Source: Candidatus Collierbacteria bacterium RIFCSPLOWO2_01_FULL_50_23
Lineage (GTDB): Bacteria > Patescibacteriota > Microgenomatia > UBA1400 > MFAQ01
DNA length: 60,081 nucleotides
NCBI GenBank assembly: GCA_001774555.1
Contig: MFAI01000018.1
Span: 873-60,953, forward strand
Direction: 5' to 3'
The notes beneath the pieces are model-generated. The model did no database searches. It was given only the letters and a program-made list of their open reading frames with translations, and had not been told where the DNA came from. A program made the translations under genes and the position numbers. Numbering within the stretch: the first letter of the stretch is position 1; each line of letters starts with the position of its first letter. Shown here in pieces: positions 2,444-57,672 of this stretch.

Positions 2444-2483
2444 CCCGCCTGCAAAAGCTGTAGCTTTAGCTACTGCGGGCAGG
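2444..2483 (-). repeat. palindromic repeat element, copy A (intergenic, upstream of the T4SS-like cluster)
   Basis: Plus strand cccgcctgca-aaagctgtagctttagctac-tgcgggcagg. Its reverse complement is CCTGCCCGCA...TGCAGGCGGG, identical at both 10-nt termini to the copies at 17426 and 45460. Inner hairpin gtagc/gctac. Confidence 0.75.
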
Positions 2484-4380: not shown

Positions 4381-7300
4381 ATGGCATTACCTTTTTTCAA
4401 CAAAAAATCAGCTGCGGCTCCTACCCCCCCCGCAGGCCACAATCCGCTTCCCACTTCTCCCGCCGGACAGATAGCTTCACCTATCCCCACCGGCCCTCTG
4501 ACCAACCACCCAACACCCTCCGGCAACTCAACTCCTGCTGAAATTACCAACATCCAAGATACTATCGCTCCTCCGGCAATTGAAGTCGACTTTTCAAGTC
4601 TGAAGATCGGCGACACTTATCTTCGCACTCTTTTTATCGTCGGTTATCCCCGCTATGTTTCCGCTAATTGGCTTTCTCCCCTCATCAACTTCAATCACTC
4701 CCTTGATATTGCTATGTACATTTATCCTACCGAAAGCAAGGGCACTCTCGACCAACTTCGTCGCAAAATTGCTGAAATGGAAGCTGAGATTAGCTCCGAT
4801 ATCCAACGGGGCCGTCTCCCTCAAGCGGCTACCCAGGCGGCTCTCGAAGACGCCAAATCACTACAAGAACAGCTCGTCAAAGGCATCGAGCGTTTCTTCC
4901 AATTCTCGCTTTACGTCACTATCGCCGCCGAGTCCATCAAGGAGTTAAATACCATCACCCAGCAAGTTCAAAGCACCCTCGGTTCGCTCCTCATCGTCGC
5001 CAAGGTCGCTTCCCTTTCCATGGAAGACGCTTTCAAGACCACGCTCCCTTACTGCAAGGACAAGCTCCTGATTACAAGAAATATGGATACCACTGCTCTC
5101 TCAACGACCTTTCCCTTTACTTCATCCGAGCTTTCCGATAACAAAGGCATTCTCTATGGCATCAACGCCCACAACGAATCTCTGGTTATTTTTGACCGTT
5201 TTTCACTAGAGAATGCGAATATGTTGGTTCTCGCAACTAGCGGAGCCGGGAAGTCTCTGGCCTATAGTGATGAAGTGTTTATCAAGAATGCGGCAAACGA
5301 GGTCAAGAGAGCCAAAATCGGTCCCCTAGTCGAAAAAATAATCCAACGAAAAGGTTCAATCAAACTGGAAAAAGATATTGAAGGTAATCTCTGTCCGGGA
5401 ATAAAGGTTTATTCGTTTGACCCAAAAACACTCAAGGGAGGTTGGTCTGCCGTTACGGTCGCCGCCCGCAAGAAATCACCCAAGAATCTATATCACTTCA
5501 CCACCAAGTCCGGCCGAGAAATTACCACCACTGCTGATCACAATCTTCTTACCCTCAAAGACACCAAAATCAATGTCTCAAAAGGGTCAGCGGCCAAAGT
5601 CGGCGATTATCTCCCCCTTCCCCGCCAGATTCTTGAATCAACCTCCTCTACTTCCAAACATTCGCTAGAATACTATTCTTTGCTTGGCTACTATACAGCA
5701 GAGGGTTGTCATACAACTAATAGTGTTCGTATTTCAGCCATGAATCCACAAATTATCAATCATGTTAAAAACCTCTGCGGTAAGCTGGATTATAATTTCT
5801 CTCTGTTATCAAACCATGGTCAAATTAAGGGGGTTTCGATCAGATCAAAATCTCTGATCAGGAAACTAAAGCTTGAAAAATGTGCCGGTAAAGCGGGAAC
5901 GAAGAGAGTACCCTCAATTCTATTTGCCGAAAAAAACGAGCTGAAAGCCGCCTACTTACGCTCATATTTTAGTGGTGATGGTTGCGTCGAACAACACGAA
6001 GTTACTTGCGTTACCAAATCAAAGGGTCTAGCCTCCGATCTCTCCTACCTCCTCTATAACTTTGGCATCATTGTTCGAATCCACCCCAAATTCAAAAAAG
6101 CCACCAACACTAAACACATTGGCGACATCTACTGCCAACTCACAATATCCGGCCAAGACAACCTCAAGAAATTTGCCAAACAAATTGGTTTCAACCTTGA
6201 TTACAAAAACCAGAAGCTCCAAAAACTACTCGGAAAAATTGGCAATCCCAATGCTGATATCATCCCAAACCTCCAAAAGTCCTTCAAAAAAATCTATTCG
6301 ACCCTCTATAACTCAAACAACAAGGCTCCCCAACGGCTGATTAACATCAAGGACGGTTTCTATAATCCCACTCCAAAGGAGCTCCTCAAGGTAATTGATG
6401 AGGTCAAACCGAGACTAAAAGAAATTGAGAACGAAGCTGAAAATATCTTTACTTTGCTCAAACTTCCTCAATGGCAAGACCTGGCTCTGGAAGGATCAGT
6501 CAAAAAATCACTAAACAAAAAGCTTTGGCAAAACCTTGGTCAAACCTGGCGCATTATGAAAAAACGCCAGGTCGCCCCCCAAATAAATACGGTTCTAAAA
6601 GTCTATGAAACTCTCCATGGGCCAGTATTTACAAAAGAACAAATATATGGAGCCATTAACCACTCTTTCAAGACCCTTGGTCTATCGCTTGGCGATTTTG
6701 ACAATACACTCTGGAACGCCGTCACCCAAACCAATGCCAACACTATTTATGATCGTGTCTACAAGGCAAGCCAGTATCTTTTAAGACAATATCTAAAATT
6801 GCAGGATAAAATTAAAAAAATAGAGGACATTCTTTCAGACATCTCCACACTTGCTAATTCAGACCTCTTCTGGGATCCAATCGAGAAAATCGAAAAAATC
6901 AAATCCCGTCATCCCCACGTATATGATCTGACCGTCAATAATCAGGTCTTTCTGACTGGTCATGGTGGAATGTTCGTTCACAACTCCTATTTTGTGAAGT
7001 TGGAGATCATGCGCGCATTGATGTTTGATACCGAAGCGATCGTCCTCGACCCCGAGAACGAGTACGAAATGATTGCAAAGGCTATTGGCGGTAATTACAT
7101 CAATTTTTCATCTTCTTCCCAGAATAAAGTTAATCCTTTCCAGATCGCCAACGTCAGCGACAGCACCGAGGATGAGATGGGCTACAAGTATCTCTTCCTC
7201 CAATCGCTCCTGAAGATTATGTTGGGTCAGATGTCTCCAACCGAGGATGCGACCCTAAATCGCGCCTTGGTCCTCACCTACCGCCAGAAAGGTATCACCG

Positions 7301-16301: not shown

Positions 16302-16601
16302 ATGTTTTTTCGCCTCTACCGGCGCTTTATCTCCCCCATTCAACACATTTTTGGACGGTCTTTGTTTGGTTCGTACTATGCCTGCCTTTTTTCCCCGACT
16401 TGCTCGGTCTACTTTGCTACAGCGGTGCGTAAGTATGGTATCATTCACGGAGGTTTACTGGGTTTTCGACGGCTTCTTCGCTGTCATCCTTTCTCGCACT
16501 CACCTCACCTCGACCCCGTACCCCTGCCTGCAAAAGCTTCCCGCCTAGCGGGATGCGGGCAGGTGAAATATCAAATCATAAATATTAACTTGAAATGTTG
16601 A
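16302..16601 (+). CDS. yidD: membrane protein insertion efficiency factor YidD, with a repeat-encoded C-terminal tail
   Basis: YRRFISP...CLFSPTCSVYFATAVRKYGIIHGGLLGFRRLLRCHPFS...DPVP matches the YidD core. The last ~25 codons run through repeat copy B. Confidence 0.8.
   Translation: MFFRLYRRFISPIQHIFGRSLFGSYYACLFSPTCSVYFATAVRKYGIIHGGLLGFRRLLRCHPFSHSPHLDPVPLPAKASRLAGCGQVKYQIININLKC
16523..16563 (-). repeat. palindromic repeat element, copy B (forms the yidD C-terminal tail, just upstream of yidC)
   Basis: Plus strand cctgcctgca-aaagcttcccgcctagcggga-tgcgggcagg. It shares gcctgcaaaagct and tgcgggcagg with copy A but has a different inner hairpin (tcccgc/gcggga). Confidence 0.75.
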
Positions 16602-17338: not shown

Positions 17339-17839
17339 ATGGCGGAACTAAAAGCCCAAAAACTAGTCGAGAATGTTCTCTCTTTACTAGATCTCTCACC
17401 AGACCAATATACCGTTGAAATAGAACCTGCCCGCAGTGCTTCCAGCTCAGCTGATGCAGGCGGGGTCGAGGATGCAGTCAAAGTTGGCATTCAGCTTCCC
17501 GAAGACCAAACCGGCATTTACATCGGCCATCATGGCGAGGGTCTCACCGCTCTTCAGCTGCTTCTGTCTCTTATGATCAGCCAGCGCACCGGCGTCTGGT
17601 ACCGCGTCTCCGTCAATATCAATGACTATCAAGAACGCCGTGAGGACTCGCTCCGTCACCTAGCCGAAACCGCCGCCGAAAAAGCCTTGTCTCTGAACGA
17701 GGAAGTCGTTCTGGGAAATCTTTCCTCATATGAGCGACGAATCGTCCATCTACATTTGGAAAACCACCCCGATGTTACCACCGAATCTCGCGGCAACGCT
17801 CCCTTACGTCAGCTTCTCGTCATCCCCAAACTCAAATAG
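17339..17839 (+). CDS. jag: Jag/KhpB-like RNA-binding protein (KH + R3H)
   Basis: KH GxxG (IGHHGEGLTALQ) and an R3H-like C-terminus (SYERRIVHLHLENHPDVTTES). Located directly after yidC. Confidence 0.75.
   Translation: MAELKAQKLVENVLSLLDLSPDQYTVEIEPARSASSSADAGGVEDAVKVGIQLPEDQTGIYIGHHGEGLTALQLLLSLMISQRTGVWYRVSVNINDYQERREDSLRHLAETAAEKALSLNEEVVLGNLSSYERRIVHLHLENHPDVTTESRGNAPLRQLLVIPKLK
17426..17464 (+). repeat. palindromic repeat element, copy D (in frame inside jag)
   Basis: cctgcccgca-gtgcttccagctcagctga-tgcaggcggg with inner palindrome cagct/agctg. Translated as PARSASSSADAGG. Confidence 0.75.
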
Positions 17840-25665: not shown

Positions 25666-26766
25666 TTACCCTACTTCCAATCCAGGATTAGGTCGCAGTT
25701 TCAGGGGGTCGATGTATGTGGGCCGCATCAAAGCACAGGCGGCGATCATGGCCGCGTTATCGGTGCAGTATTTCAAGTCCGGCAAATAAAACTCCAGACC
25801 AACCTTTTTCACCCCCGCAGCCAGTCCTTCTCTCAAGGTCGTGTTCGCGGCCACCCCTCCGGCCAGTAGTACCGCTTTTGGCGAAAAACGCTCGATTGCC
25901 AACATTGTTTTCTTGATCAAGACCTCTGCCACGGCCTGATTAAACTCGCGCGCCAAGGACTTGATCAATCCTGGCTCCCTACCCAACTTCTCTTTGTTTT
26001 CCTTCATCACGTCGATCAAGGCCGTCTTCAGTCCCGAAAAACTCATCTCCAAGTTATTCTCATGGATCATCGGTCTGGGCAATTTTAATTCCACTGGCAG
26101 TTCTAGTTCCGCCTCGGCGGCTGCCTTCGCCACCATTGGTCCTCCCGGGTAGGGGAAATCCATCGCTCGCGCCGCCTTGTCAAAGGCCTCACCGGCGGCG
26201 TCGTCACGGGTTCCGCCGACCCACTCCCAATCGGTCAGTGAACGCAACAAAATTAGATCAGTGTGTCCTCCGGAAACGATCAGCGCTACTGCAGGCAACT
26301 CAGGCGTGCTATTAGACACCCCCGAGATGGCCCGAAGGGATTCCTCGGGGGCGGTATCGTCCTTTCTCACAATCCAGTTCGCAAATAAGTGGGCGGCCAT
26401 ATGGTTCACGCGAATCAATGGTTTCTTCCAAGCCAAAGCCAGTGCCTTTGCTGTCTCCACTCCGATCAAGAGACTGCCGATCAGCCCAGGTCCCTCTGTC
26501 ACGGCGATGGCATCGATTTGATTAATCGCTATTTGAGATTTCTCAATTGCCTCCTCGATCACCGGAATGATCGCGGCGACCTGCTCCCGGGCTGCCACTT
26601 CCGGCACAATTCCGCCATATTTTGAAAGAATTTCGGCTGAACTCGCCTTCACGTCCGAAAGTATTTCAACACCTGCCTGGATAACGTCACCCTCGACCAT
26701 TGGGGATCTTCTCGCCACACTGGCACCCGTTTCGTCACACGTGGACTCGATAGCAAGAACGATCAT
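25666..26766 (-). CDS. tsaD: tRNA N6-adenosine threonylcarbamoyltransferase (Kae1/TsaD)
   Basis: MIVLAIESTCDETGASV, MAAHLFANW and LIVSGGHTDL are typical TsaD motifs. Confidence 0.85.
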   Translation of the reverse strand: MIVLAIESTCDETGASVARRSPMVEGDVIQAGVEILSDVKASSAEILSKYGGIVPEVAAREQVAAIIPVIEEAIEKSQIAINQIDAIAVTEGPGLIGSLLIGVETAKALALAWKKPLIRVNHMAAHLFANWIVRKDDTAPEESLRAISGVSNSTPELPAVALIVSGGHTDLILLRSLTDWEWVGGTRDDAAGEAFDKAARAMDFPYPGGPMVAKAAAEAELELPVELKLPRPMIHENNLEMSFSGLKTALIDVMKENKEKLGREPGLIKSLAREFNQAVAEVLIKKTMLAIERFSPKAVLLAGGVAANTTLREGLAAGVKKVGLEFYLPDLKYCTDNAAMIAACALMRPTYIDPLKLRPNPGLEVG

Positions 26767-44625: not shown

Positions 44626-45672
44626 GTGCTCAACCCTGACATTCTAAGAGGCAAAAACGTCCTCCTTCGTGCCGATCTGGACGTGCCTTTGGAGCAGGGG
44701 AAGGTGGTCAATGATTTCCGTCTCCGGGCTCTCCTGCCCACGCTCAGGCTGTGCCTCACCAACGCCCAAAGTACCCTTATCACCGGCCACCTTGGTCGTC
44801 CCGAGGCCAAATCGGAGGAATTTGGCCTCAAACCGGTACGAGAGTGGCTGGAAAAAGCGCTACATCGCTCTATTTACTTTATTGATTCGGGTTTTTCTCC
44901 AGGGGAGTGGGCAAGGGGAGAGTTCCCCCTAGCCATGCTCGACAACTTGCGCTTCGATCCGGGTGAGTTAAACAATAGTAGGGAATTCGCAAGGGAGTTA
45001 ACTCAAGGCAGCGATATTTATGTTTATGAGGCTTTTGCCAGTTACAACAGTGCCGCCAGCCTCCGAATAATACCCGAAATTATCCCCACCTATACCGGAC
45101 TTCAGTTCGACCGAGAGGTGGAGGAGTTGGAAAAAATCGTGAAAAGTCCTGTCGCACCAAGCCTTTTAGTCCTCTCCGGTGCCAAAGAGGACAAGGGAGA
45201 GTATGTGGATAACCTTGTGGATAAGTTTGACGAGATCTTGGTTGGAGGCAAACTAGCCAGCCACATTCAGCCTCAAACAAACGTCCTTCCCGCCAGCCTC
45301 ACCCCCGATGGTCTGGATATTGACGACGCCTCTGCCCGCCTTTTTTCCGAGAAAATTAAGGCTGCTAAGTCAGTAGTCATTAGCGGACCTTTGGGTAGGT
45401 TCGAGGATGGAATTCACATTGTGGGAACCAAAGCTATTTTTTCTGCAGCCGTCCACTCCCCTGCCCGCAATGCTTCGCATAGCGATGCAGGCGGGCCTGC
45501 CCGGGTCATCATCGGCGGCGGCGACACCCTGGCTGCCATTCCCGCCCTCGGCTTTGCCTACTCTGATTTTGATTTTGTCAGTACCGGGGGTGGCGCCATG
45601 CTTGAGTTCTTGGCTACGGGCACCCACCCCCTCCTTACCATTATCAGGAATCAAACCCATGCCGGTTCTTGA
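44626..45672 (+). CDS. pgk: phosphoglycerate kinase (short form)
   Basis: GTG start. GKNVLLRADLDVP...IIGGGDTLAA...STGGGAMLEFL. Confidence 0.85.
   Translation: MLNPDILRGKNVLLRADLDVPLEQGKVVNDFRLRALLPTLRLCLTNAQSTLITGHLGRPEAKSEEFGLKPVREWLEKALHRSIYFIDSGFSPGEWARGEFPLAMLDNLRFDPGELNNSREFARELTQGSDIYVYEAFASYNSAASLRIIPEIIPTYTGLQFDREVEELEKIVKSPVAPSLLVLSGAKEDKGEYVDNLVDKFDEILVGGKLASHIQPQTNVLPASLTPDGLDIDDASARLFSEKIKAAKSVVISGPLGRFEDGIHIVGTKAIFSAAVHSPARNASHSDAGGPARVIIGGGDTLAAIPALGFAYSDFDFVSTGGGAMLEFLATGTHPLLTIIRNQTHAGS
45460..45495 (+). repeat. palindromic repeat element, copy C (in frame inside pgk)
   Basis: cctgcccgca-atgcttcgcatagcga-tgcaggcggg, translated as PARNASHSDAGG. A second cctgcccg follows immediately at 45496-45503. 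Confidence 0.75.
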
Positions 45673-57624: not shown

Positions 57625-57635
57625 ATTAAACGAGC

Positions 57636-57672
57636 CACTCCCGAGGTGGTCCGAAGGAATTCCTCGGGAGTG
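57636..57672 (-). promoter_or_regulatory. perfect 11-bp hairpin in the tatD 5' leader that contains the only SD-like sequence
   Basis: cactcccgagg (57636-57646) pairs with cctcgggagtg (57662-57672), with a 15-nt loop. On the mRNA the GGGAG lies about 14 nt before the ATG, inside the 3' arm. Confidence 0.45.

Follow-up and report, generated by a model that had tools for sequence, protein, structure and literature searches.

A short hairpin repeat inserted in frame in the phosphoglycerate kinase gene of a Collierbacteria genome

The pgk gene, coding for phosphoglycerate kinase (Pgk), in a stretch of contig MFAI01000018.1 from Candidatus Collierbacteria carries an in-frame 36-nt hairpin element shortly before its conserved GGGD motif. 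We read this element as one copy of a dispersed hairpin repeat that was inserted in pgk, where it forms a slippage-prone tandem site and encodes a translated, tolerated loop, and we give this reading as a whole a probability of roughly three in four. The evidence for it includes the empty site in all relatives aligned, the presence of one or two perfect units in otherwise near-identical alleles, and the recurrence of the same element in unrelated genes.

An in-frame insertion beside native Pro-Ala-Arg codons

Coordinates refer to the window, that is, the whole stretch of 60,081 nt that was analysed; the genome to which it belongs (G000; 750 kb in 37 contigs) is a member of the candidate phyla radiation (CPR). 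The sequence-only reading from which this work started had placed a 36-nt repeat in frame in pgk, just before the GGGD motif and followed by a second copy of its first eight nucleotides, with Pro-Ala-Arg doubled as a result. The exact element, the open reading frame (ORF) and the second 8-mer were all recovered:

44626 to 45672, plus strand: pgk (phosphoglycerate kinase), an intact ORF of 348 aa, assigned from the ORF list, PF00162, homologues and structure matches
45460 to 45495, plus strand: 36-nt hairpin element, CCTGCCCGCAATGCTTCGCATAGCGATGCAGGCGGG, exact sequence, in frame in pgk
45460 to 45467, plus strand: first CCTGCCCG, the constant 5' terminus of the element, family copies starting alike
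45496 to 45503, plus strand: second CCTGCCCG, the native Pro-Ala-Arg codons (residues 291–293), as seen at empty sites of same-genus relatives
45514 to 45525, plus strand: codons of the GGGD nucleotide-binding motif (residues 297–300), from the alignment of relatives

The identity of the host gene is clear. The PF00162 domain is found on all Pgk homologues and is full-length in the window protein, Candidatus Collierbacteria Pgk is among the matches of the homologue search, and a search of solved structures matched Thermotoga PGK (1vpe, E=6e-46). The protein has the two-domain PGK fold, and its GGGD and STGGGA motifs are invariant or nearly so; in the alignment with relatives G297, G298 and G299 are invariant and D300 nearly invariant.

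The element is translated as PARNASHSDAGG, residues 279–290 of Pgk, and its 5' end forms an 8-nt direct repeat with positions 45496–45503. Its hairpin has a folding energy of about -22 kcal/mol, unremarkable in a GC-rich context (z-score of -1.1 against shuffles). The exact 36-mer is present once in the window at up to 3 mismatches, and copies A and B of the sequence-only reading, looked for there as close matches of it, did not turn up at up to 3 or up to 10 mismatches. The other family members of the window have their termini in common with the pgk copy and differ in the inner hairpin.

To define the ancestral site, pgk was taken from 5 same-genus and 10 same-family genomes and aligned. The 12 residues are present in the window protein only and absent in 15 of the 15 relatives; about 110 Pgk proteins from databases are without them too. 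In nucleotides, the empty sites of the same-genus relatives are TCC CCC GCC CG(G/A) GT(C/G), with the variants CTC GCC CGG and TCC GCT CGA; CC(C/T)GCCCG occurs there once. The native site thus holds a single Pro/Ser/Leu-Ala-Arg with codons similar to CCTGCCCG, and the insertion added exactly 36 nt, in frame, directly beside the native Pro-Ala-Arg codons. The spacing agrees with this: the distance from the helix residues T-K to GGGD is 27 residues in the window Pgk, and of about 110 database Pgk in which the motifs could be recognised, 91 have 15. Both the enlarged spacing and the assignment of the extra 12 codons to the insert, as proposed from the sequence, are therefore borne out, and the 12 codons are a lineage-specific insertion of the repeat element. 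The closest species lack it, with no compensating change.

There is an overlap of 14 nt between the end of pgk and the beginning of the M23 peptidase gene downstream of it (45659–45672 in the window; 4070–4083 in L065, a contig of a sister strain), and gap is the next gene; the three look like one operon. Other lineage-specific pgk indels, outside the CCTGCCCG family, were seen in two relatives (L007 in G005 and L009 in G003): a 42-nt quasi-duplication after GHLGRP (EAKSEQFS-PSELVERGAESQFS) and a 27-nt insert, LSGELGRMP.

Copy-number polymorphism and turnover at the pgk site

The cluster of Pgk proteins at 90% identity has four members, two of 348 aa, as in the window, and two of 360 aa that read ...VHS-PARNASHSDAGG-PARNASHSDAGG-PAR-VIIGGGD. 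The two contigs that encode the longer form (ENA ERZ4903055 and ERZ4903137) contain two perfect 36-nt units followed by the same CCTGCCCG, and their flanks are 99.6–100% identical to the window over 3.5–7 kb (99.9–100% for L065, 99.6–99.9% for L066). The window therefore has 1.22 units and the sister strains 2.22. One against two perfect units between such closely matching flanks is the behaviour of a coding variable-number tandem repeat (VNTR). Contigs with the one-copy allele number 7+1 and those with the two-copy allele 4+1, from assemblies made independently at ENA, JGI and NCBI, and mis-assembly is unlikely because the 80-nt array is shorter than the assemblers' k-mer (k=141).

With its hairpin between the two copies of an 8-nt direct repeat, the site has the classic form on which slipped-strand gain and loss would act. 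The most fitting description of the locus is 1.22 tandem units; owing to the repeat, the exact insertion point can be placed only to within the 8 nt.

Inserts at this site are also seen in further Collierbacteria. Two further Pgk sequences (P0010 and P0025) have PARRSLGV(R/G)(R/G), encoded by the 30-nt CCTGCCCGCCGAAGCCTTGGCGTAGGAGGG (CCTGCCCGC...GGAGGG), at the identical codon boundary to the window insert and followed by the native CC(C/T)GCCCGG. Two others (P0009 and P0018) have an 18-nt stump, TCTA(C/T)CCGCCGTGGTGGG (TCTACCCGCCGTGGTGGG), which is essentially the two termini only, again with the native Pro-Ala-Arg codons after it. In a Pgk tree computed from the alignment minus the insert columns, insert-bearing sequences fall in scattered positions, and branches with good support require at least 4 gain or loss events. 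In particular, insert-bearing P0025 is sister to insert-free P0024 (SH-aLRT 99) while P0010, with the same 30-nt insert, falls outside the pair, which points to precise loss. The recurrent inserts could reflect a landing hotspot, or one ancient insertion followed by turnover and repeated precise loss.

A dispersed family with a conserved reading frame

About 23 family members of 33–42 nt were found in the genome under looser criteria, with termini CCTGCCCGCA...TGCAGGCGGG and variable inner hairpins; every copy starts with CCTGCCCGCA or a variant of it with 1–2 mismatches. Apart from the pgk copy there are 4 further close copies, one identical to it in a RuvX/YqgF gene and the others near-identical in TopA, in a GH18-like gene and upstream of an ORF on contig C36. 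The remaining family copies of the window are:

17426 to 17464, plus strand: family copy of 39 nt, in frame in KhpB/Jag (PARSASSSADAGG), the site being empty in genus relatives
2444 to 2483, minus strand: family copy of 40 nt, outside long ORFs
16523 to 16563, minus strand: family copy of 41 nt, outside long ORFs

About half of the family lies inside ORFs, and these copies are constrained in length and frame. All copies in long ORFs (10–11) are 33, 36 or 39 nt long and free of stop codons, while 3 of the 12 copies outside ORFs are multiples of three. The hosts are unrelated genes: TopA, RuvX, Rho, KhpB/Jag, Pgk, GH18, Pol IV, RF1, a pilin-like protein and a 133-aa protein of unknown function (144 aa as a stop-to-stop ORF); a 594-aa ORF on contig C37, with a 33-nt copy at 3 mismatches, is a doubtful host. 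The close 36-nt copies share one frame, PARNA(S/T)HS(D/V)AG(G/R), though 5 of the 6 frames of the element are open.

Presence and absence of the element was also seen inside the 90%-identity clusters of other hosts. KhpB occurs as a 166-aa form and an insert-free 153-aa form, and GH18 as 413 and 401 aa, the shorter allele coming from ERZ4903055, the assembly with two pgk copies. For Rho there are 419-aa and 406/407-aa forms and one 411-aa form with an SVVGG stump (P0137–P0151); the 39-nt Rho insert is common to one congener (PARSAYSTAVAGG; L059, G003 C5) and absent in four others. TopA alleles vary likewise.

In GH18 and TopA the filled and empty alleles differ also in the adjoining 13–60 nt, so that either insertion goes together with turnover of the neighbouring sequence or the alleles are of old date and recombine. 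Between the GH18 allele of ERZ4903055 (L196) and our genome (C34:16546–16581), 13 nt just upstream of the element differ as well (ATIQR against MEAAR). Between an otherwise near-identical TopA allele (L197, JGI 3300002502) and our genome (C5:10561–10596) the change is composite: an addition of about 69 nt, among them the inverted partial terminus GGCGGACAGG, goes with an absence of about 21 nt.

The family in other genomes

When one genome of each species was scanned, at least 119 loci proved to have the termini of the family. Their labels cover many Patescibacteria classes and also metagenome-assembled genomes (MAGs) of Verrucomicrobiota, Kiritimatiellia, Lentisphaerae and Gammaproteobacteria, MAG labels that may include binning errors. 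The bias in length and frame recurs: 69% of the 124 copies at those loci are multiples of three, and 30 of the 58 in-ORF copies from other genomes have the PAR...AGG frame. The exact 36-mer recurs 7 times in other genomes (L083, L092, L103, L112, L122, L149 and L174), in MAGs labelled Daviesbacteria, Nomurabacteria, Staskawiczbacteria, Kiritimatiellia, Verrucomicrobia and Gammaproteobacteria. Its presence across phyla could have come about through horizontal transfer, through strong constraint or through errors of binning.

The distribution among relatives is patchy: exact termini mark 13 copies in this genome and 11 in one congener, and the closest congener has none. There is no sign of a phage vector: among 2.9 million viral contigs one contained the exact 36-mer in either variant (L198, IMGVR_UViG_3300028581_001365, 5081–5116). 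In the library that was searched, no paper contained the 14-mer or the peptides of the element.

Tandem and decayed forms were seen at two of these loci. In an Ignavibacteria MAG (L134, 1806–1891) two to three 43-nt family copies stand directly in tandem, and in L180 a 20-nt stump of termini only, CCTGCCCGCATGCAGGCGGG, abuts a full 40-nt copy.

Covariation preserves hairpins on both strands

Covariation was analysed in 33 distinct 36-nt copies with fixed termini against 500 shuffles, a control that overstates significance for related sequences. Simple dyad pairing (11–26, 16–21) shows no covariation (251 of 500 shuffles do as well). Two overlapping 4-bp hairpins, on the other hand, stand out: for 11–14/18–21 the covariation score was reached in at most 3 of 500 shuffles and the double-sided changes in 1 of 500, and for 16–19/23–26 in none of 500. 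Each of the pairs 11–21 and 16–26 occurs in the forms A-U, U-A and G-C. On the opposite strand the first hairpin mirrors the second, so either strand can form the same fold; this hints that selection acts on a structure of DNA, either single strands of the two polarities or a cruciform, and not of mRNA. An Rfam search with the element gave no meaningful match.

Predicted effect on the protein

The AlphaFold2 (AF2) model of the window Pgk has a mean predicted local distance difference test score (pLDDT) of 83.8 and a predicted template modelling score (pTM) of 0.86, with TM-scores of 0.76–0.81 to solved PGK structures. Residues 281–289, within the insert, are the sole internal segment with a pLDDT below 50. 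The insert lies between helix 263–276 and strand 293–297, which runs into GGGD; the equivalent region of the solved PGKs 1vpe and 1php is, by alignment, a short helix-to-strand turn. The insert peptide is hydrophilic and rich in Ala, Ser and Gly. It is thus predicted to form a disordered 12-residue loop in an otherwise normal PGK fold, in line with the suggestion of the sequence-only reading that the peptide occupies a tolerated surface loop.

In Rossmann-type folds the start of a strand is on the face opposite the nucleotide-binding loop. With this usual topology the insert would lie well away from the catalytic cleft, at the other end of the strand, and the enzyme would stay functional. The ORF is intact and the motifs are conserved, the one-copy and two-copy alleles persist across several samples, and family copies are constrained in length and frame; from this we infer that the insert is translated and tolerated rather than removed.

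How the element may have arrived and spread

In the proposed mechanism, the identity of the native CCYGCCCG codons with the first 8 nt of the element would make the site slip in replication or repair, and its history would comprise gain, tandem amplification, internal decay and precise loss. The copying itself may proceed through a single-stranded or cruciform DNA intermediate, given the covariation that preserves hairpins on both strands. Two routes can be envisaged: the IS200/IS605-type Y1 (HUH) transposases of the genome could act in trans, or the element could be copied from another copy by microhomology-templated synthesis.

As to the first route, Y1 (HUH) transposases act on hairpins in single-stranded DNA. 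Outside the window the genome has 3 IS200/IS605-type Y1_Tnp genes (PF01797, 77–97 bits; C36:36186–36551, C24:6163–6492 and C27:3026–3256), one of them at a contig end and one of truncated appearance. An IS608-like insertion, 3' of a fixed target and with no duplication, was tried and rejected: the 3' flanks show no motif in either orientation, and KhpB gained the whole element including CCTGCCCGCA. As to the second route, the pgk and RuvX copies, which are identical and presumably the most recent, each stand directly 5' of a native CCCGCYC, which favours homology-assisted capture at these two sites.

A more far-reaching scheme, which we put forward tentatively and consider unlikely to hold, is a transposase-free cycle in which 33–42-nt hairpins are copied in and slip out again as reversible in-frame indels in essential CPR genes. 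The element end CCTGCCCG would pair with look-alike Pro-Ala-Arg codons and template switching would copy a unit from another copy; the resulting 8-nt direct repeat around the hairpin would then drive reversible slippage between 0, 1 and 2 copies. If this cycle were true, Ser-Pro-Ala-Arg of pgk would be a recurrent landing pad.

Several points weigh against the reading of the pgk element as a dispersed repeat at a slippage-prone site. The polymorphism between one and two copies rests on assemblies, and translation of the insert and retained enzyme activity are both inferred. No empty-site allele of the species itself was found, the 90% Pgk cluster having 348-aa and 360-aa members and no 336-aa member; metagenome scans for the species-specific empty site (expected junction ...CACTCC-CCTGCCCGG-GTC) returned 0 hits, as did the filled-site control, which makes the scans uninformative. 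Likeness of the target to the element end is not general, judged by flanks in other genomes, and is absent at the KhpB site, so homology-assisted capture may be special to pgk and RuvX, or coincidental. Neither family copies within 1 kb of the three Y1 genes nor similarity to them was found. The ancient insertion with later turnover and loss mentioned above could stand in for a hotspot at pgk.

The best-surviving alternative, which we nevertheless consider unlikely, is that the insert benefits its host: as a functional surface loop, or as a hairpin of variable copy number by which translation or mRNA stability in the pgk-M23-gap operon is tuned, it would be a contingency locus and not selfish DNA. 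Variation in copy number between near-identical strains, filling of the same pgk site in several lineages and conservation of the exact 36-mer in distant phyla would fit such a role. The same element, however, sits in unrelated proteins and between genes, the closest species do without it, its peptide is predicted to be disordered, and decayed 18-nt stumps are tolerated. Covariation, moreover, keeps nucleic-acid hairpins on both strands and not the peptide.

The second 8-mer and the question of a target-site duplication

The second CCTGCCCG had been proposed, from the sequence, as a target-site duplication (TSD) or a footprint of the insertion mechanism. One part of this stands: the insert is formally bounded by an 8-nt direct repeat of its target, the 8-mer occurring once at empty sites and twice here. 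CCTGCCCG has 70 occurrences on both strands of the 750-kb genome, many of them within elements, which puts a chance 8/8 match right after one of about 24 copies at the order of 1e-3. As a general account the proposal does not hold, since each family copy begins, at its 5' end, with the 8-mer, and the other copies carry no duplicate on their 3' side. The presence of the flanking motif at element-free sites had been named beforehand as telling against the proposal, and it is present there, in the sense that empty sites hold it once.

A classical transposition would here involve a 28-nt element (CAATGC...GGCGGG) and a transposase whose staggered cuts duplicated CCTGCCCG. Taken alone, pgk fits this well, with one 8-mer at the empty site and two identical 8-mers around 28 nt at the filled one. 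Elsewhere the expectation fails. All copies have CCTGCCCG(CA) at the 5' end, and at most sites the sequence flanking the 3' end bears no relation to it: the match to the 8-mer averages 2.0/8 in 124 copies and 1.6/8 in 28 in-frame copies of other genomes, equal to controls, and is 8/8 in 1 of the 124, itself a tandem pair.

The individual empty sites give the same answer. At KhpB genus relatives have GAA|GGC, with no such motif, yet all 39 nt including CCTGCCCGCA were added. The RuvX copy is identical to the pgk copy at 36 of 36 positions and hence equally young, and a fresh TSD would be identical; it is followed by CTCGCCCA, a 5/8 match to the 8-mer. The empty RuvX site of the closest congener, TTT|CCCGCTCAC, has a native Pro-Ala codon pair resembling the element 5' end. 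A 28-nt mobile unit would in addition shift the frame wherever the TSD length differed. Transposition with an 8-bp TSD is thus largely refuted by the other copies and we consider it very improbable, and a staggered-cut TSD is not the rule for the family. Nor does the element behave as a MITE (a miniature transposable element with inverted repeats): inverted termini are present, but the flanking direct repeat is found at pgk only, the 124 and 28 other flanks being no different from controls. The second 8-mer is best read as native pgk sequence that mimics the end of the element, with a probable role in capture at this site and no value as a general footprint. It serves in addition as the beginning of a further tandem unit, the sister strains having two complete units.

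Translation or removal of the insert

The matching 8-mers raise a further possibility, namely that the insert is absent from the mature protein, either through a ribosome hop from the first CCT-GCC-CG to the second over the hairpin or through excision of 36 nt from the mRNA. Ribosome hopping over a coding gap occurs in T4 gene 60 and in mitochondrial byp elements. At pgk, matching take-off and landing codons do flank a stable hairpin, and removing 36 nt in any repeat register restores the ancestral sequence exactly. Removal would free the frame, yet every in-ORF copy of this genome has a length of 33, 36 or 39 nt and is stop-free, and most are in the one frame that gives a hydrophilic peptide; this strict multiple of three together with the frame bias is the strongest argument against bypass. 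Most other in-gene copies lack matching flanking codons, and no Rfam family, intron or ribozyme match was obtained. With the family constrained in length and frame, we regard bypass or excision as having only a slight chance of being correct. The two outcomes differ in their peptides: insert-bearing Pgk would yield the tryptic peptide NASHSDAGGPAR, and insert-free Pgk the spanning ...AAVHSPARVIIGGGD, AAVHSPAR-VIIGGGD.

An artefact of assembly or sequencing (a chimeric read, an adapter or a collapsed repeat) has next to no probability: short tandem repeats can be mis-assembled and the evidence consists of assemblies, but the independent recovery of both alleles described above is a strong argument against it, the strongest of all, and the array is shorter than k, copies elsewhere have compensatory substitutions and copies are in frame.

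Comparison with known systems

By function, the closest known system is the Rickettsia palindromic elements (RPEs); the pgk element works like an RPE and is not a member of that group. RPEs are described as palindromes of about 100–150 bp, in frame in housekeeping genes (Ogata et al. 2000, 2002, as presented in PMC10969869). By that account, both are palindromic and lie in frame, with a conserved frame, in unrelated housekeeping genes of small reduced genomes; in both, the extra peptide is compatible with the host fold and the element is present or absent between relatives. The pgk element differs in being 36 nt long (33–42 nt in the family), three to four times shorter, and has no sequence relationship to RPEs. 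It has the in-frame palindrome and the conserved frame, and neither the length of about 100–150 bp nor a Rickettsia family sequence. RPE families are, again by that account, confined to Rickettsia, whereas the termini and the exact 36-mer studied here are found in many Patescibacteria classes and in MAGs labelled Verrucomicrobiota/Kiritimatiellia and Gammaproteobacteria. The pgk copy also shows tandem copy-number polymorphism.

Repetitive extragenic palindromes (REPs) are described as extragenic, with a GTAG or CGTC tag, and as linked to REP-associated tyrosine transposases (RAYTs) of the Y1/HUH type (Di Nocera et al. 2013, PMC3733652). Within the scope of that description, the likeness lies in a dispersed imperfect palindrome of 20–40 nt with conserved asymmetric mismatches (T.G, C.A), in tens of copies and in a genome with Y1 genes. 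Unlike REPs, the present family starts with CCTGCC and has termini CCTGCCCGCA and TGCAGGCGGG in place of the GTAG or CGTC tag, and roughly one copy in two is intragenic, not extragenic. The Y1 genes of this genome resemble ordinary IS200-type TnpA, and no family copy was found within 1 kb of them.

With coding VNTR and contingency loci, which vary by slipped-strand mispairing, the pgk site shares a 36-nt unit present once or twice in otherwise identical alleles and a direct repeat at the boundary. It differs in that the unit did not arise locally but is a dispersed element with identical copies in other genes, and in that the protein affected is an enzyme of core metabolism and not one of the cell surface.

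Mobile hairpins that are short and GC-rich and lie in coding genes are also known from the GC clusters of yeast mitochondria. The byp elements of Magnusiomyces, reportedly described by Lang et al. in 2014, are said to be hairpins flanked by matching codons and skipped by the ribosome, with a length that need not be a multiple of three. The present family resembles byps in its short GC-rich hairpins in coding genes and, at the pgk copy, in the matching flanking codons. Whereas byps are skipped, the length and frame constraint here indicates read-through translation; the matched codons are seen at pgk and are missing at other copies, so programmed bypass is improbable here.

If the reading of a tolerated dispersed repeat is right, a streamlined CPR genome of 750 kb tolerates selfish or semi-selfish DNA inside a core glycolytic enzyme, and the classic Rickettsia examples set no lower bound on the size of in-frame hairpin elements, which can be three to four times smaller. 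At one codon boundary pgk offers a clean natural series (empty, one copy, two tandem copies, 30-nt inserts and 18-nt stumps), which makes gain, amplification, decay and loss of such elements directly testable. Elements of this kind would inflate apparent protein divergence, give strain-level length polymorphism in the marker genes of uncultivated bacteria, and mark loops that tolerate insertion.

A second set of 36-nt repeats, D10, was considered for membership and rejected as an unrelated hairpin family of three copies. It is GC-rich, reads CCCGAG(A/G)TGG(C/T)CCGAAGG(G/A)ATTCCTCGGG, and lies at 26314–26349 and 57633–57668 in the window and at C9:26984 elsewhere in the genome.

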